A stretch of 64,000 nt of DNA from an uncultured Acidobacteriota bacterium (GTDB taxonomy: Bacteria > Acidobacteriota > UBA6911), in NCBI GenBank assembly GCA_963827655.1, contig CAWHCF010000023.1, positions 256,001 to 320,000 of the forward strand, in the 5' to 3' direction. Under the pieces are notes generated by a model that was not told the origin of the DNA, ran no database searches, and worked only from the letters and a program-made list of their open reading frames with translations. Positions within the stretch are counted from its first letter, which is position 1. The number at the start of each line of letters is the position of its first letter. Of this stretch, positions 9,111-27,071 are shown in pieces. The position numbers and the translations under genes are program-made.

Positions 9111-9143
9111 CGAAATCCGAAATCTGCAATCCGCACCATCGTC
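9030..9143. repeat. Inverted heptamer array (GATTGCA/GATTGCG vs AATCCGA/AATCTGC)
   Basis: GACGATGGCGGATTGCAGATTGCGGAT ... AAATCCGAAATCTGCAATCCGCACCATCGTC. Confidence 0.75.
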
Positions 9144-10683
9144 AGAGAATGTCGTGAATCACTCGGCCCGCAACATCGGTCAAGCGCATTTCGCGGCCGC
9201 TGAAGTGATAGGTCAGCCTGGTGTGGTCCAGGCCTAACAAGTGAAGAATCGTGGCGTGCAGGTCGTGGACGTGCACCTTATTCTCGATGGCAAAATAGCC
9301 GTATTCGTCGGTTGCGCCATAGATCGTTCCTCCCTTGACGCCTCCGCCGGCCAGCCACATGGTAAAACCGAAGGGGTTATGATCCCGGCCAACCTCCTTT
9401 ACGTAGCCCTCGTCCGGCAGCTGCGCGGTCGGCGTCCTCCCGAACTCCCCTCCCCAAAGCACCAGTGTCTCACCCAGCAGACCGCGAGTCTTCAGGTCCT
9501 TCAGGAGCGCGGCAATCGGCTTGTCGACCGCCTGCGCGTTGACTCGATGACCTGTCTCCAGGCTGCCGTGTTGATCCCACCGGTCGATGCCCTTCCTCGA
9601 GGGGGGAAGCAGTTCGACAAATCGCACCCCTCGCTCAACCATGCGGCGCGCCAGCAGGCACTGCCGGCCGAATTCTTCCGTATCCGGCTCGTCCAGCCCG
9701 TAGAGTTTCCGCGTGGCTTCCGATTCACTCTTCAGGTCCAACAATTCGGGGACTCCGGCCTGCATGCGGAACGCAAGCTCGTAGTTGGAAATCGTGGCTT
9801 CGAGCTCGCTTACCGCGCCCAGACGATCGAGCACACCCTGGTTGAGTTTGCCGAGGAGGCCGAGTTTGTTCGTCTGCAGCTCGGGGGCTTTCTCTCGCGC
9901 CTGGATATCCGCGATGGGATGCTCGCCGCGCCTGAACAAGGTTCCCTGGTATGATGCGGGGAGGAATCCGCTGCCGAACAGGTCGAGACCGCCCGGCGGA
10001 ATCAAGCCGCTCTCGAGCACGGCGAACCCGGGGAGGTTGTCACACTCACTCCCCAGGCCATAGTTAACCCAGGCGCCCATACTGGGCCGCCCCTGAAAGC
10101 CCGAACCGGAATGCATGAAGTAGTTCCCTGCCGTGTGCTCTGAATGATCCGCTACCATGGAGCGGATTATGACCATGTCATCGACGCACGTGGCGAGGTT
10201 GGGAAAAAGCTCGCTGACCTCCGCTCCGCACTGGCCATATTTCTTGAACTTGTACGGCGAGGGGAGAATCTTGTTGCTGATATTGAAAACCGTCGTTGGC
10301 GTCTCAAAAGGTATGGCCCGCCCGCTCTCCTTTTCGAGCCGCGGCTTTGGATCAAACGTGTCGATCTGAGAGGGTCCGCCGTCCATGAACAGGAAGATGA
10401 CCGATTTTGCTTTCGGCGCGTAATGAGGCGGTCGCGGAGCCAGAGGATTTCCGGCGCGAGCGGATGCTGCAGCGGCGAACTTGTCCGCCAGCAGATAAGC
10501 CAGCGCCAGCCCGCCAAAACCGTTGGCACACCGGCACAGCATTTCTCTGCGGCTCACTCCAGGCCTGGAAAGATCGACTCTATGGATTGACGATTTACGA
10601 TTGACGATTGACGATTGAATCCTACTTTCCTCAATCGTCAATCGTAAATCGTCAATCGTAAATCCCTTCGGATTACCGGACAT
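9142..10683 (-). CDS. DUF1501 domain protein (alkaline phosphatase/sulfatase-like)
   Basis: SRREML, AKSVIFLFMDGGPSQIDTFDPKP, WDQH, GEFGRTP and GRDH motifs. ATG 10683 overlaps the upstream stop region. Confidence 0.9.
   Translation of the reverse strand: MSGNPKGFTIDDLRLTIEESRIQSSIVNRKSSIHRVDLSRPGVSRREMLCRCANGFGGLALAYLLADKFAAAASARAGNPLAPRPPHYAPKAKSVIFLFMDGGPSQIDTFDPKPRLEKESGRAIPFETPTTVFNISNKILPSPYKFKKYGQCGAEVSELFPNLATCVDDMVIIRSMVADHSEHTAGNYFMHSGSGFQGRPSMGAWVNYGLGSECDNLPGFAVLESGLIPPGGLDLFGSGFLPASYQGTLFRRGEHPIADIQAREKAPELQTNKLGLLGKLNQGVLDRLGAVSELEATISNYELAFRMQAGVPELLDLKSESEATRKLYGLDEPDTEEFGRQCLLARRMVERGVRFVELLPPSRKGIDRWDQHGSLETGHRVNAQAVDKPIAALLKDLKTRGLLGETLVLWGGEFGRTPTAQLPDEGYVKEVGRDHNPFGFTMWLAGGGVKGGTIYGATDEYGYFAIENKVHVHDLHATILHLLGLDHTRLTYHFSGREMRLTDVAGRVIHDIL
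10585..10664. repeat. Palindromic heptamer array (GATTGAC)n-loop-(GTCAATC)n
   Basis: About 5 units per arm with a 12-nt loop. Single arms also occur at 54720-54753 and 58729-58750. Confidence 0.9.
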
Positions 10684-13600
10684 AGATGAACTCCGCCGAG
10701 TTGAGCAAAACATGGCACAGATCCGCCCACGCTTCACGGGACTCATCCCCGGTGCCGCCCGAACCGGAGAGATCCCGATACCTCGCGGCTTGCGATTCGA
10801 CGAACTGCAGGGCTTGCGCTATTTCCACGTTCTCCGGAGGCCGGCCAAAACCCGTCAGGTAAAGTCGTTCCACACGCTTCCGGTTGTCGTCTTCGGCGCC
10901 CATGATCCGGCGCGCCCATTCCCGCGCTTCAAGCGCAACCAATTCGTTGTTCATCATCAAGAGAGCCTGCGTCGGCACGGTTGAAACACTGCGGTTCCCG
11001 ATGGTCGAGATGGGAAGCGGGTAATCAAAAGCCAGGAACATGGGTGTAATGAAGTTTCGACGCACTTGAATGTAGACACTGCGTCTCCCGGCCCCGTCCA
11101 GCGGTCCCGATTCAGGCTTCCCTCGACCATCCTGATACTTGCTGATATGGGGCGGCACGCCCGGCCCGAACAGTTTCCCATCAAGCGTTCCCGCAACAGC
11201 GAGAATGGAATCGCGGATGACCTCGGCCTCCAGCCGCCGCACCGGCATGTGATGAAGGAGCTTGTTTTCGGGGTCGATCCCGGCAGCGGCTGTGTCGGCC
11301 TGGCTCGACATGCGATACGTGCTGCTCAGCAGGATCCTGCGCTGGATGGACTTCACCGACCATCCGCCTTCCCGGAATTGATGAGCAAGGTAGTCCAGCA
11401 ACTCCGGGTGGGTAGGACGATCTCCGGTTTTTCCGAAATTATCGGTCGAGCGAACAATTCCAGAGCCGAAGTGATGCTTCCAGACCCGATTGACCATGAC
11501 CCGCGCTGACAGTGAATTCGCCGGGTTTGAAACCCATTCGGCCAGCTGCAATCGTCCGCTCTGCTGAGCGACGGCGGGCTGATCGCGGCCCGCAATTACT
11601 TGCAGGAAACGCCGGGGGACTTCCTCTCCCAGGGTCTTGTGGTTTCCTCGAAGGTGAATCCGAATGTTGCGGGGATTCTCATCGCGCGCGACCATGGCAA
11701 ATGCAGATTCCGGCACCTCCCTCTCCAGCTCTGACCGGCGATTCTGAAGTTCGGCCAGCTTCGCCAGCTCCTGACCGGAAAGCAGGCAGGCAAGGTCTTC
11801 CAGTTTCCTCGTCGGACTGAACGCTGAGACCGTCCGGCGCGCGTCGTTATCCAACGTTCCGGTTCGCGCCCATGCGCTGCTGAATAGCTTCTGGTAGGCC
11901 TCCGCCAGCGCCTCCAGAGTCGTCACATCGGGCGTCCGGAGCAGCGACTCCACAAGCGCATTCGGGGGCGAAGTTTCGGACGGAGGTTGCTTCGAATCGG
12001 AGAGGACGATCTTGTCGACAGCGATATGACCCTCACGGCTGCGATCGACGATCTCAAAATAGCAGATCCGCCCGATCTCTTTCGTCAACCGCATCGTCTT
12101 CCACTGAAAATCGGGATTCCCGTCCGGCACGACGTGCAGGCTCTTGTGGCTATCGGCCACGATCGTAAGACGCAGCCTGGCCTTGTCTCCCCTCTGTGGT
12201 TCCTTGCTTCCCGCGATGCGCGCGTGAAGATAAAGCTTCGGCACCTTGAATTTCACGGAAGTCAGACTGCCAACGAGTTTGTCGGAGCCGCTGCCGAACG
12301 AACTTGCCGAACTTTCGCCGCGAAAGCCGCGCAGCTCCTGATTGGGAGGGACTTCGCGCGTCGGCCCTTCGCCGAAAGCCTGACCCGAGGCGCTCCACGC
12401 CTGATAGTCCGAGGCTTCGAAATCTTCGTAGAGAATCTCCTCCGAGGCCTTGCCATCGGCCGGCCTCACGCCGACTCGCTCGCTGAGACGTTTGCGGATA
12501 AGCGCCCAGTGCATCTGCGAAGGAAACGCCCTCCCTTGCCATATGCTCCACCGCCGCGGCGAACGGATAAAACAGGTGATCGGTTTCCTTTTGGGCCTGC
12601 TCAAGAGAACTTACCCAGGCTCGCAGCAACGCCTCATTCAGGCCGCCGGCCTTGGCCAATTGTTCCTCGCGCGACTTCTGTCCGTCTTTTTCTGAAGTGA
12701 GCACCCCGGCTGCCGCCACGAGGTAATCCTTCATCCGCTCCGCCAGCCTGGCCTGGGCCGGTTGAATCATCTCTCTGATCTGGTCGTTTGCATCTGAGAT
12801 CTTCCGGCGCAGCGAGGCAATCTGTCGAGAGCGCGCGGGCGCATCCACGACAGCCTCGGTGACGTCGGTGCTATGCATCATGCCGGCCAGGGCGTAATAG
12901 TCGGAGGTGGGGATGGGATCGAATTTGTGGTCGTGACAGCGGGCGCAGGCCACGGTCAAGCCCAAAAAGGCCTTGCTCAGAACATCGATCTGATTGTCCA
13001 CCTGGTCGGCGCGGGATTTCACCGAATCGGTCGCGCTGTTGAGCACCTCGCCAAACCAGTAGAAATTGGTGCCGAGGGGGGATTCCCAATAAGATCCGTC
13101 GGAACTGATCCGCTTTTCGGCTATGAGGTCTCCGGCGATGTGTTCCCTGACGAACTGATTGTAGGGAACATCATCGTTGAAAGCCCGAATGACGTAGTCC
13201 CGATAACGCCAGGCATCGAGCTTGTCATTGTCAAACTCGTGGCCGTTGGTTTCGGCAAAGCGCATCAGGTCGAGCCAGTGTCGTCCCCAGCGTTCGCCGT
13301 AATGAGGGGAAGCAAGGAGTCGATCCACTACCTTTTCGTATGCGCCGGCGGAATCATCCGACAAGAAGGTGTCGATCTCCTCGGGAGCCGGCGGCAAGCC
13401 GATCAAGTCAAAAGTGACACGACGGATCCAGGTACGCTTGTCGGCCGGCGGCGCAGGCTTCAGGCCTTTCTCCTCCAGTTTTGCGAGAATGAACCGATCG
13501 ATGGGAGAACTGGGCCAATCGCTCTGCTTGACAGTCGGTAGAGGCGGATTCTGAATCGGTTTGAAAGCCCAGAATTTCCGGCCCTCCTCCAGATCGATGC

Positions 13601-14042
13601 CCTTACGCTCCGCTTCCGTGGCCGGCACAGCTGCGGCAGTACGCGGGTCCGGAGCTCCCATCTTGATCCAGTCGATCAAGTCGGCGATCTGCTCGTCGGG
13701 CAGCTTGCCGTTGGGCGGCATCTTCAGATCGAGGTGCCTGTAGGAAATCGCCTGGATGAGAAGGCTTTTTTCCGGATCTCCGGGAACGATCGCCGGTCCT
13801 CGATCGCCTCCCTTCAGGAGACTGTCCCGAGCGTCCAACCGGAGGCCCCCCATCGGCGGTTTCGATGATGCGCTGTGGCAGAGATAGCACTTCTCAACCA
13901 GGACGGGGCGGATTTTCTTCTCGAAGAACTCCTCCTGCTGGGGATTTCCTGCGACTTCCACGTGCGAGTAAGGGAAAAGCAGGGCTGTGGCTAAAGCCAG
14001 TGCGGAAGCAAAGAATCCGAGTGCGGACCGAAGATTGCGCAT
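10673..14042 (-). CDS. Planctomycete cytochrome c + DUF1549 + DUF1553 (PSD1) protein, frameshift near 12506
   Basis: CYLCH heme motif, YGERWGRHWLD, CARCHDHKFDP, ARVMVNRVWKHHFG and THPELLDYLA. Two ORFs join at a CTGGGCGCT run. Confidence 0.85.
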
Positions 14043-14238
14043 GAGGCGATGTTTTTTTGTTACCAGCCGACTTCCGTTAGCGGTCAGTAGTATCCCACGA
14101 ATCAGCGTTCCAGGCGAGGCATAATAGGCCACCACCAAGCCGCGAAGACGCCAAGGAATACAAAGGCGACCCTAGCGCGGCCTGATGCCTTCGATCGCGA
14201 CAGACTGATGTATGATAGGGTAACCGAGAAGATTACAA

Positions 14239-15380: not shown

Positions 15381-18300
15381 TTAAGACGGCCTCAGCACAA
15401 GCACGGGAGTAATCCGCTCCAGGGTCGAAGGCCCGCCATGCGAGAAGGCTCTGCCGTCAAGCCCAAGGCGGAATCCATGATCTCCAAAAACGACGACCGG
15501 TTGGCCAGGGTCGAGCCGCGGGACTATTCTCCTGAGGCCGACCTCCAGCTCGGCGCGGGTAAGGCGCGCAAGACTGTCGAGATCGGATCTCCGATTATGA
15601 ATCAGAGTATCGATACCATCCAACTTCTCGAACGGTTTCTGCAAGCCCTCGTCGATAAGAGCGCGGTAGAACTCGTCGGTCGAGGTTTGACGCGAAACCA
15701 GACCGAATTCAATCGCCTCCATTTTCCAGCGCGCCAGGCAATCACGCAGGGTTTCACGCACAGTCGCGAGCAGCGGAAGACCGAGCGCGTCGATCACGAT
15801 CCATTGCGCATTGAGATGGCGCCGAAGCACGCTGGCAAGGAGGCAAGGGGAAGGCGACAGCTCGATCTCAGCCAGCTGGTTGAGCCGCGTCAGCCAGAGT
15901 TGCGGCCGCAACTCCAGGAACCGCTCGTTCTGCTGGTAAAGGCTCGAGACTTTTTCGGCCAGGATTTCCGGAGATGCCGGCTGTTGAGGAGCCAGGAGCT
16001 CTAACGCCGCCGCGACCGCACCCCGGGATGGCCGGGACTTCGGCGCAGGCACGAGCCCGTCCAGAACCATAGACAGGATACGCCGGACGGCCTCCTCGCC
16101 CAGCTCCATCTGCTCGAGCTTGAGGAGACTCTCTTCCGCCACCCACTTGGGTTCAATAAGACCGGCGATGATGGATTGCTCCGCAGGCGAAAGAACGGCG
16201 GGCAGCGGGGAGCCATGCCTGAGAGCTTGTTCCGCAGCCCAAGCCAGAAGGTCGGTTCCCCGGGCAGGCTCGCGTCTCCGAAAGGTGATGCGCGATCCCA
16301 GACTGCTCAAGAAGCGCTCCAGTTCTTCGAGCAGGGCCGATTTTTCCCACAGCCGTTCTCCCAGGAGATCCACAAGTGTTTCGGCGCAGACTGTTTGAAC
16401 CAATTCAACACCCGAGAGGTGCTGATCGAAGAGCGACAGGTTTTCAACATCGGGATAGCCGGCCTTTCCTTCCAGGTAAGAGAGGGCCTGGGTGTTCAGT
16501 TCGAGCTTCTGGTCCACCCATTCCTGAATCCGCATCTTTACCTTATCCTGCTGGAAAAAGAGCTCGAGCTCCTGCTCGAGCCGTTTCTCGGCCTTTTCAA
16601 AGCGGCTCAATGTTTCACCCAGCGGGCTTTCTCGTCCATCGAATCCGCAACGGCAGACAGGCTGGAAATCCAGGGGACTCATTCCGGCGCAGCGCTCGGC
16701 CTGGGCCTTGGCTTTCAGGCTCTGAAGCTCGCTCACCAGATCCTGGGCCGCGAGATGGCGGCTGCGCGCCATGCGTGGGATCTGGTAAGACCATACCGCA
16801 TGACGGCCCACCGACTCGCGCCACTCTTCGTGGCGCCGGCGGTACCAGTGCCGGTATTTTTCATACACGGCTTGAGCCTGCGTCAACCACGCTTCGAGCT
16901 TTTCCGGCTGGGCCAGCGCGGGAGCCGGGCCCAGTGTCTCGAAGCCGGCGCGAACGCCCGGATCTTCGCAACCCGACAGGGAGGGATAGCCGAACAGGTG
17001 GCGGAAGCGCTGCGCTTCACGAAGGAGCTTCTCGAAGCGCGGCGGCAACGTCATCATCTCGCGCGCCTCGTTAACGAAGCGCGGGGGCGATCCTATGGCA
17101 AAAAGGAAATGCTGCAAGCCTTGCAGTTCATGCTCGCCCTTTTCCAGCGCCAGCCACGCGGCGATCAGCTTCTCAACCCGGTCGCTCAGGTCGCCGGTCT
17201 CTTGCTCCCTCTGCAGCTGAGCCAGAAAATCACCGAGCCGGTCCCGCTGGCTGCCGCCGAATTTTCGCAGCTGTTCGATCGCGCGCTTCTGCGCCAGCAC
17301 GGTCCACTGTTTGGGAATCGAGACATCGAAACCTTCACACAAGACTTCGAGGTCGCGAAGCTGGTTGAGAGTCAGGGCGCGGCCGGGGACGATCTTGTCG
17401 TATTGCAGTGGCTTGATCAGCGTCTGGTAAATCTCCCGATAGGAACGCTGCCCCTTGAGGATATCGATTTCCCCCTGGATCAGGAGAGTCAATAACAGCA
17501 GATGGATCTGATCCGGCACCAGGCCATAAACCGGGCCGGCGAGATTCTGATAAATGCGAGCCGGCGAGGGATGGTGTTCGAGAATAGGAGCGATCAGCCG
17601 GACCAGCTCGTGGCCGTCGAGCCTGGGATTCATCGCGTAGTCGGCCCCGCGCCGCTGCATCAAGCGCATCGGAACCAGGTAGGCCTCGCGGATCAGTTTC
17701 ACGAATTCGGGCGCCTCTTCCGCGCCCAGGTCGTGCTCGGTCGAGTACTTCATGAATTGACGGTACGCTTCCTTGGGGAGCGGGCCGTGGCTGGGAGCGA
17801 ATCGCTCGAAGAGCGGATAGGTCTGTCTCAGCAACCATTCACCGTAGGCGTTGAGCCACGCGGTTTGTCCCCCTTGCATCGCATCGATCGGCGCGCCTGT
17901 CTGGGCGCCGGTCGGATCGAACACAGCCGCATCGTTGTAGGCGGCGCGCACCAGAGAGGAAAACCAGGAGCTTCGCCCGGCAATGCGTTCCCCAACCTGC
18001 TGGAGCACGCGACCAGCCAACGGGCGCTCCCGCAGTTGATACAGCGCCGCCAGCTCGAGCACCTCGGGGCCGAGTTCCAGCTTTCGTGGCACAATCCTGA
18101 AACACCCGGTTCCTTCGGCCGGTGGCCCCCAGGGAATGCCAATTTGAAGGGCCGGACCGGCGGCTTCCGGCGGAGTGCCGCCGCCTAGATAGAACTGCAC
18201 CTCACGGTCGTGGAAGTACCAGCGCAGGTTGCGAGCATGCCAGCGATCCCGCGGGAGCGTAAAAGGATTAAAATCCGATCGCGCCAGGCTCTCGAGCAGG

Positions 18301-19664
18301 GTCTCAAAGACCGCATCGCCGCGAGTCTTCAATTCCTCCACGCTGCGTGCAATCAATCGGTCCAGGGACTCGCGGCTTTCGCCTTCCAGGTCGAGCGCGT
18401 AGCGCGGCCCCTTGCGCTTGAGGAAAGCCCCTTGTTCCACCAGCGTATCGAGAATCCGCTTGCAGATCTCCCGGTTCCGGGCTGGATCGAGCTTCGACAC
18501 TTTCAACAAAAGCCACTGGGCCGCTTCCCCGGCATCGAGCTGCTCGCGGCGCGGGGAGAGGTGGACGAGGATCAACAGCTTCAGCAGGCGCCAGGCGAGC
18601 TCCTGCTCAGGCTTCCGGGCGAACAGCGACGGTATCTGCTTCCGGTAATACGGGAGCAGCTTTTGACCCAGGGGCAAGAACTCCGGCTGAATCTCGAACA
18701 GGTCGGCAAAATGGTCGGCGATACAGTCCGGCGTTATGAGCTGCCCCCAGGGTTCATCAAGAAACGGCTGTATACCCCGGGCTTCGTTGCCCAGCAACCG
18801 AGTCAAGGTAAAATCGATGATGCCGCGCGCCTGCGAAAAGCGATCGCGCACCTCTTCGAGCAGTTCCAGGGTGGTTGGATGAAGCGGATAGATTTCGCAA
18901 AACTCGGCGAAATTTACCGAGTCCTTCGGATAAACTTCCATCAGCTCCTTGGCGAGACGCGCTACGGCGGTCGAGTACGACGGCTTCTTGCGCAGAATGC
19001 GCTGCGCGATCAGGTCCTTGACATGGGCGGGAGTGAGCAGGAAGCGGATCGGGTACCGGTCTCTGATCTTGCGGTAAAGGTCATACTCCATTTCGCCGGC
19101 GTGCTCGATCTGCTCCTGAATCGCGCCCAGAACCCACAAGGAATGAGACTGGGCCCATTCGCCCAGGAACTGAAGGAACCTGAGATCTTCGTTGAAGCTC
19201 TGGGGAGAGGGCTTGGAGCGCAGAAACTCGGATAGTTCATCGAGAATCAAAACCAGACCCTGGGGGTATCGTTGCTGGATTCCTTTCCAGCTCACGCGCC
19301 GGTCTGATTGCTCGTGTGTGGCCCCGAGCGCCTCGTTCAGTATGGATTCGAGCGACTGCGAGGATCGATAGTGCAGCAGCGACAGCGCCAGCACCGCAGG
19401 GTTGCGGGAAACAAAAGCGCTGCCTTCGAGCTGCTGGGTCAGGTAAGCCAGGAAATGCGACTTTCCCGCGCCGTAGTGGCCGATCAGGAAAATGCCGCAA
19501 CCGGTTTCCTTGGCAAGCAGGAGTCTGAGCGACTGAAAATGCCGTTCGACTTCTTCGGTAATATAGTATCGATCGCTGATCCAGGAGGAATCGGCCTCCT
19601 TGAGTTGATCGAGGCGCACCACAGTGGGCTGCGCCAAAACGTCGACGTGGTCGCGAATCTTCAA
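15381..19664 (-). CDS. DUF6079/BrxC-PglY-like P-loop ATPase fused to a C-terminal PglZ-like (alkaline phosphatase superfamily) domain
   Basis: Walker A GHYGAGKS, Walker B LILDELSEFL, IQE, KIRDRY and YPLHP; Cys cluster C-x11-CxC; C-terminal IDALG, TST, DTLIH, GDHGF and SHGG..E...P. Confidence 0.75.
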   Translation of the reverse strand: MKIRDHVDVLAQPTVVRLDQLKEADSSWISDRYYITEEVERHFQSLRLLLAKETGCGIFLIGHYGAGKSHFLAYLTQQLEGSAFVSRNPAVLALSLLHYRSSQSLESILNEALGATHEQSDRRVSWKGIQQRYPQGLVLILDELSEFLRSKPSPQSFNEDLRFLQFLGEWAQSHSLWVLGAIQEQIEHAGEMEYDLYRKIRDRYPIRFLLTPAHVKDLIAQRILRKKPSYSTAVARLAKELMEVYPKDSVNFAEFCEIYPLHPTTLELLEEVRDRFSQARGIIDFTLTRLLGNEARGIQPFLDEPWGQLITPDCIADHFADLFEIQPEFLPLGQKLLPYYRKQIPSLFARKPEQELAWRLLKLLILVHLSPRREQLDAGEAAQWLLLKVSKLDPARNREICKRILDTLVEQGAFLKRKGPRYALDLEGESRESLDRLIARSVEELKTRGDAVFETLLESLARSDFNPFTLPRDRWHARNLRWYFHDREVQFYLGGGTPPEAAGPALQIGIPWGPPAEGTGCFRIVPRKLELGPEVLELAALYQLRERPLAGRVLQQVGERIAGRSSWFSSLVRAAYNDAAVFDPTGAQTGAPIDAMQGGQTAWLNAYGEWLLRQTYPLFERFAPSHGPLPKEAYRQFMKYSTEHDLGAEEAPEFVKLIREAYLVPMRLMQRRGADYAMNPRLDGHELVRLIAPILEHHPSPARIYQNLAGPVYGLVPDQIHLLLLTLLIQGEIDILKGQRSYREIYQTLIKPLQYDKIVPGRALTLNQLRDLEVLCEGFDVSIPKQWTVLAQKRAIEQLRKFGGSQRDRLGDFLAQLQREQETGDLSDRVEKLIAAWLALEKGEHELQGLQHFLFAIGSPPRFVNEAREMMTLPPRFEKLLREAQRFRHLFGYPSLSGCEDPGVRAGFETLGPAPALAQPEKLEAWLTQAQAVYEKYRHWYRRRHEEWRESVGRHAVWSYQIPRMARSRHLAAQDLVSELQSLKAKAQAERCAGMSPLDFQPVCRCGFDGRESPLGETLSRFEKAEKRLEQELELFFQQDKVKMRIQEWVDQKLELNTQALSYLEGKAGYPDVENLSLFDQHLSGVELVQTVCAETLVDLLGERLWEKSALLEELERFLSSLGSRITFRRREPARGTDLLAWAAEQALRHGSPLPAVLSPAEQSIIAGLIEPKWVAEESLLKLEQMELGEEAVRRILSMVLDGLVPAPKSRPSRGAVAAALELLAPQQPASPEILAEKVSSLYQQNERFLELRPQLWLTRLNQLAEIELSPSPCLLASVLRRHLNAQWIVIDALGLPLLATVRETLRDCLARWKMEAIEFGLVSRQTSTDEFYRALIDEGLQKPFEKLDGIDTLIHNRRSDLDSLARLTRAELEVGLRRIVPRLDPGQPVVVFGDHGFRLGLDGRAFSHGGPSTLERITPVLVLRPS

Positions 19665-19680
19665 TAGGGACCTGCTCTAA

Positions 19681-19912
19681 GGGTTCGCGCAGAAATAAGT
19701 TCGCATTCTGCTGCAGGCCCCCAGGCCCGCTGGCGAGGCGCGAGCGACGATGCGTACCCGGTGCGGTACGTGAGGAGCGAGCAACAAAGCCAGCGGGCCT
19801 GCGGGCCGCAGCCCGAAGGGGCGCGATCCTCAGCGTGCTTAGCGAACAGAAACCGGTTCATGATTGACACAGACTCTCGCGCCAGAATGTGAAGTGATTT
19901 ATGCGCGAGCCC
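19681..19912. mobile_element. MITE family A, copy 1
   Basis: About 30-bp imperfect TIRs GGGTTCGCGCAGAAATAAGTTCGCATTCTG / CAGAATGTGAAGTGATTTATGCGCGAGCCC, flanked by TAA on both sides. Second copy at 62709-62946. Confidence 0.85.
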
Positions 19913-19964
19913 TAAGTACCCTGTTTGCTTTCTGAATGTACCATAGACTCTTCGCGTCCCGGCG

Positions 19965-20991
19965 GTGGATTCCTTTTCAATCATTGACCGCGAAGTCCGG
20001 AAGACGCAAGGAAAGTCAGCGAAATTGTCCAAGCAGTTCCTTCAAGCTCTGCAGCGTAACCTGCGGCAAGCTTTGAACCAGAATCATGCCGACGAAGCCG
20101 CCGAGATCCTCGACCGCCTCAAGAAGGAGGACCCGCTGTCGCTGGAGACGCGCGGGTTCGAGCTCGAGTTCTACTTGAAATCAAACCGGCTGAGCGAAGC
20201 CGAATCCCTCGCCCGGCAGCTCTGTCACCTGTTCCCGCAGTCGGCCCGAATATTTCCTGTTGGCCGGAAAAGTGGCCTACCGGCAGAAGCGCTACCTGGA
20301 GGCAGAGGCTCGCTTTCGGGAAAGCCATCGGATATTTCCGCACTGGCGCACCGCGCACTGGCTCGGGAAGACCCTTACTCAGTCGGGGAAACTCGAGGAG
20401 GCCGAGCCGCTTCTGCTCGGCGTCGTCGAGCATTCCGGCAACGCGCGACTCGATCTGGCCTGGCTTTACGAGAGGCGAAACGATTTCGATGGTGCGCTCA
20501 AGCAGTACGATGCCTTTCTCGAGCACAACCCGGCTCACACGTTCGCAATCGAACAACAGAAGCGCCTGAAGGCGAAAATCCTCGATCCGGACGCTTTGAT
20601 CGAGGAGGTCGACGCACTCGCCGAGTGGGGAGAGCAGATTCCGGACGCGCTCGTTTCAGAGCTCGTGGAGAAGCTGTTTCAAACCGGCGACAGCCTGCGT
20701 GCCCGCGCCGAAATCACGGCGCGGCTGGGGAAATTCGATACCCGTTTGGGAGTTCGGGTCGCATGGGTTTGCCACAAGTATCAGGCCTATGATCTGGCCT
20801 TGAGCCTTTTCCAGGCATTTCTTCCAGCCAATCTGTCGAACTACAAATACCTGAGGGCGCTCGAGTCGGCTGCAGCCCGGTGTCATCGTGTGCCACAGGT
20901 CATCGAGGCTTATCGAGCGCTGGCAGGGCAGGCTCCGCATCTCCACGGCCGCATCAAGTCGCTGGCCCGGCGCAGTCCGCGTGAAGCATAA
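19965..20991 (+). CDS. Tetratricopeptide-repeat protein (about 341 aa; frameshift near 20255)
   Basis: The helical N-terminus (AEILDRLKKEDP..., LFPQSARIF) joins LLAGKVAYRQKRYLEAEARF, WLGKTLTQSGKLEEAE and DLAWLYERRNDFDGA if one T is removed at TATTTCC. Confidence 0.75.
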
Positions 20992-21055
20992 CAGCCGAAC
21001 TGGAGTGGCGACGCGCTTCGCCAAACCAGGGCGCGAAGCGAGCTCTTAACCTTAC

Positions 21056-21276
21056 GCGCGGGTCATCAAAGGCTTCTTGCAAAACCACCCGTCATGTCGG
21101 ACGGGCTATAGCCCGTCCGGCCTCCTAGCGGCACAAATGAAGTTCAAGGCTAAGCCCTCCCGATTTTCCTACTGGGCAACGGGCCAGATGGCCCGTTGCC
21201 ACAGAAGGCTCGGAAAGTGTCCAAGCCAATCGGCGGGTCGCAGCTGAGTTTTGCTACAGTCTCTGATGACCCGCGC
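21056..21276. mobile_element. MITE family B, copy 1
   Basis: Ends GCGCGGGTCATCA..TTGCAAAAC / GTTTTGCTACAGTCTCTGATGACCCGCGC. Internal hairpins GGACGGGC-TATA-GCCCGTCC and GCAACGGGCCA-GA-TGGCCCGTTGC. Confidence 0.8.
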
Positions 21277-21491
21277 CACACTAACGTATCGACTGCAAAA
21301 GACTATACAACGGCTTTGTGTTGAGAGTATTTTATCGTCGCGGCCTCCCTCCACGCTGGAGCCCGGCATCATCGTGCTAATCGTAGAACCGTTGGATTTC
21401 TCGCGCGCGCCTTGCCTGGCGCAGCCGCTGCTCAGCACGACGTCAAGCCGATAAGGCCGTTGTGCAATCGAACCCGAGAAAGGAGTCATGC

Positions 21492-22196
21492 ATGGCACTG
21501 AGTAATCGCTTGGCGGCCGAGTTCATCGGCACCTTCTGGCTGGTTCTGGGTGGCTGTGGCAGTGCTGTTCTGGCGGCAGCATTTCCAGATGTCGGAATTG
21601 GTTTGCTGGGGGTATCGTTCGCTTTCGGACTTACGGTGCTGACTATGGCCTATGCAATTGGCCACATCTCCGGCTGTCACCTGAATCCCGCGGTGTCGGT
21701 CGGCCTGAACGTCGGTGGTCGCTTCAAAACGTCGGACCTGCTTCCGTATATTGTTGCCCAGGTCCTTGGCGCAATTGTTGCCGCCGCGGTGCTGTATTTT
21801 ATCGCAAGTGGAAAAGCGGGCTTCGATGTCAGCGGTGGTCTTGCGTCCAATGGATACGGGGAACATTCTCCCGGTGGCTATTCGCTGGCCGCCGGGCTTG
21901 TCACCGAGGTCTTAATGACCTTCATGTTCCTCATAATCATCCTGGGCGCCACCGACGAGCGCGCACCCAAGGGATTGGCGCCGATCGCCATCGGGCTGGG
22001 TCTCACGCTGATTCACCTCATAAGCATCCCAGTTACCAATACCTCGGTTAACCCGGCGCGTAGCACCGGACCTGCCGTGATCGTTGGCAGCTGGGCACTC
22101 GGCCAGCTCTGGCTGTTTTGGATAGCGCCGATCATCGGAGCCGCGCTTGCGGGTGTCGTATATCGCTGGCTCGGTGGCGCCAAGAGCCAGGCGTGA
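21492..22196 (+). CDS. aqpZ: Aquaporin Z
   Basis: [28 protein letters not shown] and [10 protein letters not shown] (two NPA motifs); AAGGAG RBS. Confidence 0.95.
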
Positions 22197-23085: not shown

Positions 23086-25624
23086 ATGAAGCCGTTGAGC
23101 GAACTTCGACAGTTTAACCTTTCTATGGATCGGTGTCTTACTCCTTACCCTGGCCGCCGCCCATCCTCAAGATCAAGTCGGCGACAGGGTCTTCGAGCAG
23201 GAGGTCCAGCCGATCCTGCAAGCCCGCTGCATGCCCTGTCACGACGCCAAGACGCGCTCGAGCGGCCTGTCGGTCCTGACCAAGGCAGATCTGCTCGCCG
23301 GCGGTGCGCGGCGCGGACCGGCCGTTGTGCCCGGCGATCCCGAGTCCAGCGCCCTGATCAAGATGCTCTACGGCCAGATCTCTCCGCAGATGCCCTTCGG
23401 GCAGGATCCCCTTCCCGCCGAGCGGATCAATCAGATCGCGGCCTGGGTCCGGGGTCTGAAACCTGAAGCCGTGTCGCAGGCGGTTAACGAGAAATGGTGG
23501 GCGTTCCAGCCCGTGAAGAGAACCGAGGCGCCCGCGGTAAAGAACTCTTCCTGGGCTCGCAACGACATCGACCGCTTCGTCCTCCAGAAACTCGAAGCGA
23601 AAGGTTTAGCGCCGTCACCCGAGTCTCCGAAGCAGATCCTGCTGCGACGGGCATTCTTCGATCTGGTCGGGATGCCGCCCACACCCGAAGAAGCGATGGC
23701 TTTTCTGAGCGACAATCTGCCCGATGCCTATGAGAGGCTGATCGAGCGTCTGCTGGCCGATCCCCGGTATGGCGAAAGGTGGGGACGGCACTGGCTTGAT
23801 CTTGCCCGATATGCCGATACCCAGGGTTTCGAGGCCGATCGCGAGAACTACCACATGTGGCGGTACCGCGACTACGTGATCCGGGCCTTCAACGATGACA
23901 AGCCTTACGACCGGTTCATCCAGGAACAAATTGCGGGGGACGAGCTGGCGCCCCAGCCGCCCGAGGCCCAAATCGCCCTGGGCTTCCTCCGTCTCGGCCC
24001 GCGCTTCCAGACCACCATTGTCAGAGAGGCGCGACAGCTGATGCTGGATGAGATCACCTCCACCATTGGATCGGTCTTCCTCGGCCTCACGATGAAGTGC
24101 GCCCAGTGTCACGACCACAAGTACGATCCTATCCCTCAGAAGGACTTTTATCGCCTGCAGGCTTTTTTGCTTCCCGTCGAGGTTGTGGATCGTCCGTTCC
24201 AGTTCACAGACCCGGAACTGCGCGCGAAGATGGAGCGGGCCCATGCCGAAACCAGCGCGCGCCTGAAGAGCGATGAGGCGAAATTCAAGACCTATCAGCA
24301 GGCGTTGATGGCCAGACTGAGTGATCCGGCAGACAAGGCCGCCGCTGATACCGACGATGATGAAGGCGCGCCCGGAAAGATCGACCCGAGGATCGCGAAC
24401 CTGGAAAGGCGGATCTACCGGGTTGACGCCAATGCGCTGACGCCCAATGCCGAGGATTCAACCTTTACCCTCGAGGAGAAAGAGAAATATCTCGATCTGC
24501 TGAGCTACGTCGACGGAACCCGGGGTGGACGCGACATGGGATTGACCCGGCGCCAGCTCACGCGATATGAGCCGAAAGCGCACACGGTCAAGAATGCCGA
24601 TAACTCCGCGCTCGGACCCGCTCTTCCCGTGGCGCACGTGCGCATCCGAGGTGAGTACAACCACCTGGGTGAAATCGTGGAGCCCGGGTTTCTCAGCGCG
24701 GTCATTGGTAAACCCGATCCTGCGGTTCTGCCGGCAGACCGATTCGGCAACGTCCGGGCCTGGCGGACGCCGCTGGCCAACTGGATTGCCAGCCCTGAAA
24801 ACCCATTGACGGCCCGCGTGATGGTGAATCGGATCTGGCAATACCATTTCGGCAACGGCATCGTGACCACTCCGAGCGACTTTGGCCGCAACGGATCACG
24901 CCCCACACATCCCGAGCTGCTCGATTGGCTCGCGCTGAAGTTCGTCGAGAGCAAGTGGAGTATCAAAGCGATCCATCGGCTCATGATGACCTCCAGCACC
25001 TATCGACAGACGTCGCTGGGGCCGGCCGAGAAAAAATGCGAAGAGGTCGACCCCGGAAATCTGCTGCTCTGGCGTATGAACCGACAACGCCTGGAAGGTG
25101 AGATTATCCGGGATAGCGTCCTGGCCGTCAGCGGACTGTTGAATCCCGACCGAGGGGGACCCGGTGTCTTTCCGCGCTTGCCCGCGGCGATGTCGGAGCG
25201 TCTGCGAATCAAGAACCTGCCCATCTGGGAACCGAGTGACGGCCCCGAAACGCGCAAGCGCTCCGTGTATATCTATCAGCGCCGCCAGCTGGAAGTCCCG
25301 TTCCTCTCTGTGATGGATGCGCCCGTTTTCCAAACGTCGTGTGAACGGCGCGGGGTCTCGACCACGGCCCTCCAGTCGCTCATGATGCTGAACGGAGATC
25401 TGGTCTCGCAGGAGGCGGTTCATTTCGCCGAGCGCGTGGCCCGCGAGGCCGGCCCGAAGCCCTCGGAGCAAATCCAGCGGGCGTTTCAACTCGCTCTGGC
25501 GCGGCCACCGACGGCCGAGGAGTTGAAGGAAGCACGCGATTTTCTTGCGGCGGCAGACAAAGAAGGACTCGTCGGCCTTTGCCGAATCCTCTTCAACACG
25601 AACGAGTTTGTCTATGTGGATTAA
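23086..25624 (+). CDS. Planctomycete cytochrome c + DUF1549 + DUF1553 protein (frameshift near 23096)
   Basis: The frame extends upstream of the listed ORF through LTFLWIGVLLLTLAAA...FEQEVQPILQARCMPCH. YGERWGRHWLD, CAQCHDHKYDP and THPELLDWLA are present. Confidence 0.9.
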
Positions 25625-27071
25625 TGATCGCGACGGCCTGCCCTTGTCACGCAGGGAGCTGCTCTTCCGTTGTTGGAACGGAATCGGTTCGGTGGCCTTG
25701 ACTTCGCTTTTATTGCGCGAGACGGCGTCAGCCGCCGAGAAGACCTTGCTCAACCCGTGGGCGCCGAAGCGGCCGCACTTCGCGCCCAAGGCCAAGAACT
25801 GCATCTATCTGTTCATGTCGGGCGGGGTCAGCCAGGTCGACACCTTTGACTACAAGCCGGAGCTGGAGAAGCTGGCCGGGAAACCGCTGCCGAAGATTGA
25901 AGGCGTTACCGGCGAGATCGAGGCCTTCTTGAAAGAGCCGCACCAGGCGATGCCGAACCGGTACCCGTTCGCTCGCGCCGGGAAATCGGGACGATACCTG
26001 TCGACACTCTTTGAACACCTGTCGGCCTGCATTGACGATCTTGCCTTCGTGCACGGAATCAAGGTGGACAGCAATAATCACTCCCCGGCGACCATGCACG
26101 TCAATACCGGCTCGGTTTTCCAGGGAAATCCTTCCGTCGGCGCCTGGGTAACTTACGGCCTCGGGAGTGAAAACCAGAATCTGCCGGGCTACATCGTGCT
26201 CCACGATCATCGGGGCGGGCCGGTCAACGGCTCGGCCGTGTGGCAGGGGGGGTATCTGCCGGCAACCTACCAGGGAACCTCGCTCCGTCCCACCGGAGAC
26301 CCGATACTTCATCTGACTTCGCCTCCAGGGATGACTCGAGAGCGCCTCCGGCGAGAGCTTGACCTTCTTCGCCGGATCAACGAGAAACATGCGGCCGCGC
26401 GCGCGGCCGCCGATGACCTCGAGGCTCGCATCGCCGCCTATGAACTCGCCTTTCGCATGCAAGCCGAGGCGCCCGAAGTAGTCGATGTTTCGCGCGAGCC
26501 CGAGCAGATCAAAAAGCTCTACGGGTTGGACAATCCCGTTACCGAGCCGTTCGGCAGGCAGTGCCTGCTGGCCCGGCGCCTGGTGGAAAAAGGAGTGCGC
26601 TTCGTCCTGCTGATTCATGGCTGGGAAAACGGGGCTTATAGCTGGGATCATCACCGGGAGCTGAAAGAACAGCTGCTCCCACGCGTGCGCGAGGTCGATA
26701 AGCCGGTTGCGGCCTTGCTCACGGATCTCAAGGCGCGAGGCCTCTTCGACGAAACCCTCGTGGTCTGGACGTCGGAGATGGGGCGCACGCCCTTCGCCGA
26801 AGGAATCAAAGAACGGCCCGGACGTAATCACAACCAGTATGGCCTGGTGAGCTGGTTCGCCGGCGGCGGCATCCGGGGCGGCGCCACGGCGGGCCGGACC
26901 GACGATTTCGGTCTCAAAGCCGCGGGAGAACCGATCCCGATCCGAGACCTCCACGCGACCGTACTTCATTTACTGGGTCTCGATCAGACGGCTCTCACGT
27001 ACCTCCACGAAGGGCGTTTCAAGAGATTGACCGACACAGGCGGCTCGGTTCTGAAAGAGATCCTGGCCTAG
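25614..27071 (+). CDS. DUF1501 domain protein
   Basis: SRRELL, AKNCIYLFMSGGVSQVDTFDYKP, WDHH and EMGRTP motifs. Confidence 0.9.
   Translation: MWINDRDGLPLSRRELLFRCWNGIGSVALTSLLLRETASAAEKTLLNPWAPKRPHFAPKAKNCIYLFMSGGVSQVDTFDYKPELEKLAGKPLPKIEGVTGEIEAFLKEPHQAMPNRYPFARAGKSGRYLSTLFEHLSACIDDLAFVHGIKVDSNNHSPATMHVNTGSVFQGNPSVGAWVTYGLGSENQNLPGYIVLHDHRGGPVNGSAVWQGGYLPATYQGTSLRPTGDPILHLTSPPGMTRERLRRELDLLRRINEKHAAARAAADDLEARIAAYELAFRMQAEAPEVVDVSREPEQIKKLYGLDNPVTEPFGRQCLLARRLVEKGVRFVLLIHGWENGAYSWDHHRELKEQLLPRVREVDKPVAALLTDLKARGLFDETLVVWTSEMGRTPFAEGIKERPGRNHNQYGLVSWFAGGGIRGGATAGRTDDFGLKAAGEPIPIRDLHATVLHLLGLDQTALTYLHEGRFKRLTDTGGSVLKEILA

Follow-up and report, generated by a model that had tools for sequence, protein, structure and literature searches.

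The window analysed here is a stretch of 64,000 nucleotides from the genome of an uncultured Acidobacteriota bacterium of lineage UBA6911 (GenBank assembly GCA_963827655.1, contig CAWHCF010000023.1, positions 256,001 to 320,000). At positions 15381-19664 its reverse strand carries one open reading frame (ORF) of 1427 codons that begins with TTG, a plausible start because homologues align from residue 1-3. The encoded protein runs from a BrxC/DUF6079-type AAA+ ATPase through a conserved middle region and a helical region with a cysteine cluster to a predicted, much shortened PglZ domain at the C-terminus, referred to below as the mini-PglZ. A gene for a tetratricopeptide repeat (TPR) protein lies beside it on the opposite strand, and the pair is considered here in relation to the bacteriophage exclusion (BREX) systems. 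The features of the two genes are as follows.

15381-19664, reverse strand: single-chain protein of 1427 aa, identified by its open frame and translation, by matches to Pfam DUF6079, PADLOC BrxC and (below cut-off) NCBIfam BrxC, and by the lengths of its homologues
19458-19481, reverse strand: Walker A motif GHYGAGKS, residues 62-69, with K68 and S69 invariant
19236-19250, reverse strand: Walker B motif LILDE, residues 139-143, with D142 and E143 invariant
16647-16691, reverse strand: invariant cysteine cluster C992-x11-C1004-x-C1006 inside a long helical region
15384-15812, reverse strand: predicted C-terminal mini-PglZ domain of the alkaline-phosphatase superfamily, residues ~1285-1427, with D1292, T1327-x-T1329, D1352-x3-H1356, D1395-H1396-G1397 and H1409-G-G-x4-E1416-x3-P1420
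20025-20991, forward strand: divergent partner gene for a TPR-repeat protein of ~320 aa, identified by tblastn of intact homologues, by its sequence and by Pfam TPR matches on homologues

Architecture of the single-chain protein

An earlier sequence-only reading of this locus, made without database searches, had called the 1427-aa ORF intact, and translation bears this out. It had placed the Walker A motif at about 19461-19482 and the cysteine cluster at about 16640-16695; both are present at the exact positions listed above, as is the Walker B motif LILDE. The C-terminal motifs it had named also occur in the order it gave, namely IDALG (D1292), QTST (T1329), DTLIH (D1352, H1356), GDHGF (D1395, H1396) and SHGG (H1409). 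K68 and S69, D142 and E143, the three cysteines and the C-terminal motif residues are invariant in an alignment of 24 full-length homologues with 44-64% identity to the query, so these motifs are not chance strings. The C...CxC cluster is likewise invariant in five aligned proteins of a sister clade of longer fusions, described below, and by analogy with the apical subdomain of BrxC it may be the metal-binding apex of a coiled coil.

The N-terminal region matches Pfam DUF6079 with 83.5 bits (cut-off 23), the profile that best matches BrxC according to a survey of BREX systems (bioRxiv 10.1101/2025.10.09.681413), while matches to generic AAA families are sub-threshold. The PADLOC BrxC-PglY models match residues 134-447 with a best E of 8e-21, in agreement with the BrxC-like N-terminus assigned from the letters, and weaker PADLOC matches to SspC (E 5e-11) and DndF (E 0.007) fall in the same ATPase region. 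The NCBIfam BrxC equivalog NF033441 reached 55.8 bits, far under its cut-off of 400, and PglY NF047891 reached 10.2 bits against a cut-off of 1700; on these scores the protein is not an equivalog of BREX BrxC. A profile of the full-length family searched against the PDB found as its best match a BrxC-BrxB chain (9zn5_A, E 5e-6, residues 32-84 only), and BrxC models could be aligned to the first ~450 residues only. These residues are predicted to be a BrxC-type, ORC/Cdc6-like AAA+ module, and the remaining chain appears to be family-specific. BrxC itself is described in the same survey with a triad of winged helix-turn-helix, alpha+beta and winged helix-turn-helix domains, followed by a C-terminal coiled coil bearing an apical subdomain. 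The long conserved middle region and the invariant cysteine cluster are sequence-level hints of a BrxC-like rear part in the fusion as well.

The C-terminal assignment was examined through its residues and through profiles. In the PglZ domain of PorX the metal ligands are reported as D239, T272, D361, H365, D415, H416 and H500, with T270, G417, G501, G502, E507 and P511 as further core residues (PMC9757075). Their counterparts in the window's protein are D1292, T1329, D1352, H1356, D1395, H1396 and H1409 for the ligands and T1327, G1397, G1410, G1411, E1416 (seven residues after the histidine) and P1420 (four after the glutamate) for the core, and the local spacings T-x-T, D-x3-H, DHG and HGG-x4-E-x3-P are the same as in PorX. 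All seven ligand positions are invariant in 93/93 sequences, 46/46 from the family and 47/47 from the sister clade, and the C-terminal motif residues are also invariant in alignments of 49 and 46 C-terminal pieces. The long segments that separate the motifs in BREX PglZ, where the core spans ~290 aa inside a protein of ~830-890 aa (bioRxiv 10.1101/2025.10.09.681413), are cut to 10-25 residues in the mini-PglZ.

Searched against the PDB, a profile of the C-terminal domain found a PglZ domain-containing protein as its top match (9nv3_C, E 0.026). The match is made of three collinear stretches, with the DHGF and HGG motifs among them; 12 further matches listed had E >0.2 and looked like noise. 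For direct comparison a reference set was assembled from eight genuine PglZ genes found in 151 genomes of the window's phylum, seven domains of which were aligned. With hhalign, the C-terminal profile paired with these seven domains in three collinear segments, scoring 19.5 (IDALG...T with DALRYE...T), 40.7 (ADHGF with ADHGF) and 41.1 (HGG..E..VP with HGG..E..VP). Sixty column shuffles gave a mean top score of 14 and a maximum of 23.1, with a second-segment maximum of 15.5, and the reversed alignment scored 21.1 and 16.6; the two segments at 40.7 and 41.1 are about twice the best of the 60 shuffles. An unfiltered search with a hidden Markov model (HMM) of the seven PglZ domains reached E<=1e-3 on 25 of the 46 family C-termini, with 1.5e-6 as the lowest value. 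Among complete sister-clade ORFs from metagenomes, 47/47 matched the C-terminal HMM and 20/47 also matched the PglZ HMM (best E 7.5e-10).

A search of 1.84 billion representative sequences with the C-terminal profile returned 275 proteins. Wherever the last part of the domain was matched among the 150 listed, it lay at or near the C-terminal end of the protein. A second tier consisted of fusion proteins of 1493-1783 aa, seven of which were scanned with Pfam: five carry DUF6079 at the N-terminus, three have sub-threshold Pfam PglZ matches of 19.7-23.1 bits, in one case overlapping the residues matched by the C-terminal profile, and one weakly matches the NPP-type Phosphodiest family. As a lead only, the Atlas cluster near the homologue P0085 has PF08665 in 15% of its 67 members.

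Several results speak against a PglZ assignment. The Pfam check that the sequence-only reading had looked to failed, since PF08665 gave no match to residues 1200-1427 at E<=10, short of its gathering score of 25 bits, and a scan of the whole genome at the same threshold returned four weak matches, none in the 1427-aa gene. The hhalign probabilities are 58-72% per segment (58% for the last), the window's own C-terminus matches the seven-sequence PglZ HMM at E 0.0024, and in length the domain comes to about half of the ~290-residue BREX PglZ core. One could argue from these figures, with all hhalign probabilities below 75%, that the domain is neither PglZ nor alkaline phosphatase, that the likeness of its motifs is convergent or coincidental, and that the protein is an unusual BrxC-family ATPase with a family-specific tail. 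We regard this as very improbable. All seven ligand positions, together with the glutamate and proline of the core, occur in the same order and local spacing throughout the 93 sequences, two independent segments score about twice the best shuffle, HMMs connect the domain significantly with genuine PglZ domains both directly and transitively, and PglZ is the top match in the PDB. The homology rests on motifs and on weak-to-moderate profile scores, and an alkaline-phosphatase fold would be expected. By its signature and profile links, not by the Pfam threshold, the domain is judged to be a divergent member of the PglZ family, genuine and strongly shortened to ~140 aa, and at that level the minimal PglZ-type C-terminus first proposed for this protein stands.

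Spread of the fusion and its partner gene

The fusion is far from unique to the window. A protein search found 314 relatives, of which 120 were listed; 117 of these have lengths of 1411-1480 aa, with >=99% of the query covered. Among GTDB genomes, taken one per species, 107 stretches encode a relative, and 80 of these loci were kept and compared with the window. Their carriers belong to the Acidobacteriota, Planctomycetota, Gammaproteobacteria (many of them Methylococcales), Myxococcota, Gemmatimonadota, Binatia and Schekmanbacteria, and full-length fusions span at least seven phyla. Two of the carriers (L011 and L047) are cultured isolates. Within the window's own phylum, 5 of 301 sampled genomes carry the gene, its own genome counted; the others are two of six further genomes of the same family and two of three of one other family. 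All five matches lie in open frames of 1426-1468 aa. An assembly artefact, named by the sequence-only reading as a possible source of the fusion, is ruled out: the same ~1.4-kaa architecture recurs in >100 independent records of full-length homologues, and the fusion is real and conserved.

In a tree of 51 full-length sequences, from which six rows with internal stops were left out, the window's protein falls inside a starred clade of 10 Acidobacteriota rows. Phylum labels change 13 times on this tree, and this number, set against a minimum of 6 and a mean of 26.4 after shuffling, suggests mostly vertical descent with some transfer. The rows left out (L005, L028, L035, L061, L065 and L066) have 1-31 internal stops in the span of the large gene, which may stem from frameshifts, from decay of the copies or from gaps in the span that tblastn covered. 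A standalone or split form of the C-terminal domain was also sought. Among 2311 candidates there were 12 short matches, mostly on contigs of 1-4 kb, and none was convincing; the sole short match on a long contig (P0126, on a contig of 566,799 bp) has a full-length gene there by tblastn. That locus is L050, where the public gene call makes the C-terminus a separate protein of 248 aa and the tblastn match is full-length.

Clustering of the ORFs that flank the large gene in the window and the 80 loci revealed only one conserved neighbour, a protein of ~320 aa encoded immediately upstream on the opposite strand. Six intact copies match Pfam TPR_19, TPR_14, TPR_16 and related TPR families. The TPR gene adjoins the large gene in 64 of the 71 loci that have >=1.5 kb of upstream sequence, 60 by clustering and 4 by tblastn. 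It lies downstream instead in three loci, including L050 and L076, two related Acidobacteriota loci in which it is on the same strand as the large gene and not upstream and divergent. The sequence-only reading had missed this partner; the large gene is not a single-gene system.

A scan of metagenomes with an alignment (A8) recovered 76 sister-clade loci (L090-L165); the same scan with a single protein (P0260) gave no matches. These loci encode DUF6079 plus mini-PglZ fusions in ORFs of 1532-1893 aa. In 58 of the 76 loci, 59 of which have >=1.5 kb of upstream sequence, the large gene is immediately preceded on its own strand by a homologous TPR gene of ~334 aa, whose stop touches or overlaps the large gene's start, as in an operon. 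E-values of the TPR HMM in this clade range from 2.5e-27 to ~1e-5 for the 40 matches listed. Because the TPR partner has been kept across two clades and two gene orders, there is strong evidence that the two genes form a functional pair, and the TPR protein probably binds the large protein physically. Taken together, the fusions fall into at least three size classes (~1430, 1650 and 1750 aa) and are spread among bacteria of soil and sediment. The sister subgroup of ~1650 aa has SHG(K/R)GG in place of HGG.

Additional genes recur beside some sister loci. In 9 of them the neighbour is a SNF2-family helicase, whose side and orientation vary, and an HD-domain protein is found near 5. Seven have a RecD2-type helicase immediately downstream, and six have an upstream gene for an RNase D-like 3'-5' exonuclease with an HRDC domain. 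Because several of all these loci are nearly identical, the number of independent cases is smaller.

Genomic surroundings and the copy in the window

The neighbourhood of the large gene (7431-29673) was surveyed by a Pfam scan of 20 ORFs, 10 of which were also run against PADLOC. Within ~10 kb on each side, the neighbours are assigned to PSCyt/PSD1, DUF1501, Yip1, aquaporin, beta-lactamase-family and GH5 proteins or to no family. Neither scan detected a methyltransferase, a helicase or a BREX accessory gene in this interval, and PADLOC returned zero matches; the earlier observation that pglX, brxA, brxF, brxL and a BREX helicase are missing nearby holds. In the whole genome (8.18 Mb, 90% complete) one marginal PF08665 match was found elsewhere (25.2 bits), just over the cut-off, in a 402-aa frame with a DHG motif (L081, C9:62255-62896, reverse strand). 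A canonical BREX system in this genome was considered and set aside, the marginal match on C9 being the single PF08665 candidate.

None of the window's flanking ORFs recurs beside any of the other 80 loci. A wider survey covered 124 neighbouring proteins, two on each side of 31 homologous loci, and found no BREX accessory family among them. The possibility that homologues sit in complete BREX operons, which would have changed the interpretation of the window, is not borne out. RtcR-type PADLOC matches among these neighbours proved to be sigma-54 activators.

The large gene itself is intact in the window. The TPR gene is split by one extra base near 20252-20257 into frames at 20025-~20270 and 20254-20991. 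In four of four related soil or rhizosphere metagenome runs, from four studies, the sequence is one letter shorter at 20252, 20256 or 20257, and three of the four bridging contigs are 97-99% identical to the region. With all four related runs one letter shorter, the frameshift is private to this assembly and reflects an assembly error or else a recent mutation. A further feature lies between the two genes.

19677-19916, no strand assigned: repeat of ~240 bp that resembles a miniature inverted-repeat transposable element (MITE), with terminal inverted repeats of ~34 nt, inserted between the two divergent genes, 12 bp before the start codon of the ATPase gene

Read depth over the MITE-like repeat runs into the thousands in the four soil and rhizosphere metagenome runs, with loose ends at 19676-19680 and at 19916. 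A scan of the genome found at least 40 near-full-length matches at 95-100% identity, the window's own copy included, when 40 of 191 candidates were scored. The repeat holds an internal 19-nt inverted repeat (19716-19734 and 19789-19807), and Rfam gave no match at E<=0.1 to positions 19500-21600, which include it. The intergenic gap is ~360 bp here because the MITE has been inserted between the TPR and ATPase starts; across loci the median distance between the end of the TPR ORF and the ATPase start is ~110 bp. The insertion seems to be shared by related strains, judging by contigs of theirs that enter the MITE from both flanks. Contigs of the four runs break inside the element, as expected of a repeat, and these breaks are no evidence on the junction. 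With a frameshifted TPR gene and a MITE between the genes, the window's copy of the module may be impaired.

A second, older MITE-like family is represented at ~21056-21281 (~225 bp, with terminal inverted repeats whose arms are 21056-21074 and 21258-21276), and the genome has at least 39 further matches to it at 72-85% identity. This copy closely follows the TPR stop, so that two different small repeats bracket the TPR gene. Three reverse-strand ORFs in this interval were rejected as genes. The 123-aa ORF at 19661-20032, which overlaps the start codon of the large gene, has no family, lies almost wholly in the MITE and showed no homologous ORF beside the other 80 loci. The clustering across loci of the ORFs at 20119-20556 and 20656-21024 merely mirrors the TPR gene on the other strand.

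Two PSCyt/PSD1 plus DUF1501 pairs flank the module in opposite orientations (9142-14138, reverse strand, and 23231-27071, forward strand); such pairs are typically present in multiple copies in these genomes. In the first, the ORFs at 12150-14138 (PSCyt1 and PSCyt2) and 10673-12604 (PSD1), both on the reverse strand, overlap by ~450 nt in different frames, and the paralogue at 23231-25624 (forward strand) has all three domains in one protein. This overlap may be another frameshift in the assembly and, if so, would favour the assembly-error reading of the TPR frameshift. Six metatranscriptome runs contain 0.07-0.10 of the sampled words, a figure with no bearing on expression.

Relation to known systems and proposed function

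The closest known counterpart of the fusion is the core of BREX types 1-6, BrxC/PglY and PglZ with BrxB, which has the same two modules and the same C-terminal catalytic signature. BrxC and PglZ are physically associated in BREX, according to the published account (PMC13326643); here they are one polypeptide. Whereas the PglZ of BREX has a ~290-aa core in a protein of ~830-890 aa, the mini-PglZ has ~140 aa, and the N-terminal inactive-helicase, helix-turn-helix and beta-sandwich domains described for BREX PglZ are missing from the fusion. None of PglX, PAPS reductase, BrxA, BrxB, BrxL, BrxH or the phosphorothioation genes is linked to the fusion gene, and its partner is a TPR protein, which the text of the BREX survey does not describe for BREX. 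As neither a modification gene nor the accessories turned up when looked for, the fusion module belongs to no BREX type. It would work like a BREX core made covalent, an activity that we infer from the shared modules.

Other comparisons are more distant. The PglZ domain of PorX (PDB 7PVK) shares the ligand set D, T, D..H, DH and H and the core HGG..E...P, as far as its description goes, and phosphodiesterase chemistry is expected of the mini-PglZ on that account. PorX differs in having a CheY receiver domain, a role in type IX secretion signalling, a PglZ domain of ~300 aa with a cap subdomain, and no fused ATPase. The BREX-related systems described by Rakesh and Krishnan (Type-3 BR with a standalone PglZ, and a HerA/FtsK-centred system with PglZ and DUF6079) also pair PglZ with a BrxC-like ATPase outside canonical BREX and are sparse across phyla, as is the fusion. 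As described, they comprise 4-7 components, with PglZ separate and a methyltransferase, helicase, STAND, HerA, GNAT or TGT protein in addition. The ATPases of phosphorothioate systems, SspC and DndF, give the weaker N-terminal matches reported above, and no Ssp or Dnd partner genes lie nearby. To our knowledge, ATPases of the SspC/DndF type have no PglZ tail. Rad50-Mre11/SbcCD couples a long helical ATPase with a cysteine-containing apex to a metallo-phosphoesterase nuclease; the likeness is one of analogy only, as the ATPase of the fusion is AAA+ and ORC-like, not ABC, the nuclease fold is different, and no homology is claimed.

The main text of the BREX survey (bioRxiv 10.1101/2025.10.09.681413; PMC12839542) makes no mention of the fusion or of the TPR partner, and its supplementary tables might list such architectures. 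No description of a BrxC-PglZ single chain or of its TPR partner was found in the literature searched on DUF6079, PglZ and BrxC, which is in keeping with the sequence-only claim of an undescribed system, and PADLOC v2 has no model for the fusion beyond the BrxC matches and the weaker SspC and DndF ones.

We propose a two-gene module consisting of the ~320-aa TPR protein and the 1427-aa chain of BrxC-type ATPase and mini-PglZ, with a methylation-independent, BREX-derived role against invading DNA, a proposal for which we consider the chances evenly balanced. In BREX, BrxB, BrxC and PglZ are reported to form a core complex in which ATP regulates self-association and DNA binding of BrxC (PMC13326643). 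PglZ of BREX is reported as a Zn/Mn-dependent phosphodiesterase and DNA endonuclease that is inhibited by ATP, and mutations of T538 and H741 abolish or reduce its activity (PMC12205998). By extension, ATP binding and hydrolysis by the AAA+ module of the fusion would control oligomerisation and DNA binding, as published for BrxC, and the state of the module would position, unmask or gate the C-terminal PglZ active site. T1329 would serve as the nucleophile and D1292, D1352, H1356, D1395, H1396 and H1409 as metal ligands, and with a two-metal site the mini-PglZ would cut phosphodiester bonds in DNA or oligonucleotides. The TPR protein would be a stoichiometric partner, acting as sensor/adaptor or inhibitor. 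Since there is no methyltransferase, discrimination of self from non-self would not be epigenetic and would have to come from a trigger, for example a signal sensed by the TPR protein. Defence is the likely role of such a module. The specific form of a two-gene immune system, in which the TPR protein senses an invader or stress and releases an ATP-gated motor whose attached mini-PglZ cuts DNA with no epigenetic self-marking, is put forward more tentatively, at a little less than even confidence. An accessory, conflict-type role is consistent with the patchy spread (5/301), the 13 phylum changes against a minimum of 6, the flanks that do not recur and the SNF2 helicase in 9 sister loci.

A number of observations count against a defence role. 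No relative was found on IMG/VR viral contigs (0/62 pattern matches) or in PLSDB plasmids and phage records. Among the 124 neighbours, 121 Pfam families were found, and the 25 listed, the commonest and best-scoring, are mainly housekeeping, including response regulators, sigma-54 activators, ABC transporters, H+-PPase, AcrB, peptidase M3 and FlgK; at E<=1e-8 PADLOC gave scattered matches to Hhe, MkoA/MkoC, PDC-S37, PDC-S66, TIR, subtilase, mad3 and mad8. Conservation is even along the chain, at 0.44-0.81 per 40-aa window, and this per-window measure revealed no hypervariable stretch of the kind expected of a sensor. Six of the 71 loci have no TPR partner within the available sequence, and in a seventh (L078) the sole candidate is a giant ORF with a weak TPR-like match. 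Much of this would suit a chromosomal machine for DNA maintenance or repair, a functional analogue of Rad50-Mre11/SbcCD made from an ORC-like AAA+ ATPase and a PglZ domain, with the TPR protein as assembly factor, as would the invariance of the cysteine cluster in both clades. The RecD2-type helicases and the RNase D/HRDC exonucleases beside sister loci fit DNA repair equally well, but they come from closely related contigs and represent few independent cases. Repair is also difficult to reconcile with very patchy occurrence, both in the phylum and among the six others of the same family, and with a genomic context that differs at every locus, and the characterised relatives of both domains all act in BREX defence or in PorX signalling. 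We consider a repair role unlikely.

A third possibility, already raised in the sequence-only reading and less probable still, is a nucleotide-signalling enzyme whose mini-PglZ degrades cyclic or linear oligonucleotide messengers, as in PorX, with the ATPase and TPR protein as sensor and regulator. The PglZ domains of PorX and BREX are reported to cleave cyclic and linear oligoadenylates (PMC9757075, PMC12205998), and the domain here is reduced to its catalytic core, with short segments replacing the long inserts of BREX PglZ. However, the N-terminal 450 residues are of the BrxC-type DNA-binding AAA+ kind, no cyclase, CARF/SAVED or other messenger-system gene is among the conserved neighbours, and the extra neighbours that do recur are DNA helicases and an exonuclease. 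What likelihood is left after defence, repair and signalling falls to some other role.

The anti-phage mode of BREX and the coupling of its ATPase to its nuclease are still debated in recent papers, which describe a BrxC/BrxB/PglZ core complex with PglZ as nuclease. A natural BrxC-PglZ single chain that lacks a methyltransferase and has a single small partner is a pared-down BREX core and a minimal model for this coupling; its expression, mutagenesis and imaging should be simpler than those of a BREX system of six genes. As a 'Rosetta stone' fusion it supports the functional link between BrxC and PglZ independently of biochemistry. The PglZ catalytic set would fit into ~140 residues, about half the size of the PglZ domains described in print. 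Standard PglZ profiles miss this whole branch of the family, so surveys built on Pfam PglZ will have overlooked the fusions. As a repair machine, the module would represent a new way of pairing an ATPase with a nuclease. As a defence system, it would add a methylation-independent branch to the BREX lineage and would be the first system of that lineage with neither methylation nor phosphorothioation.

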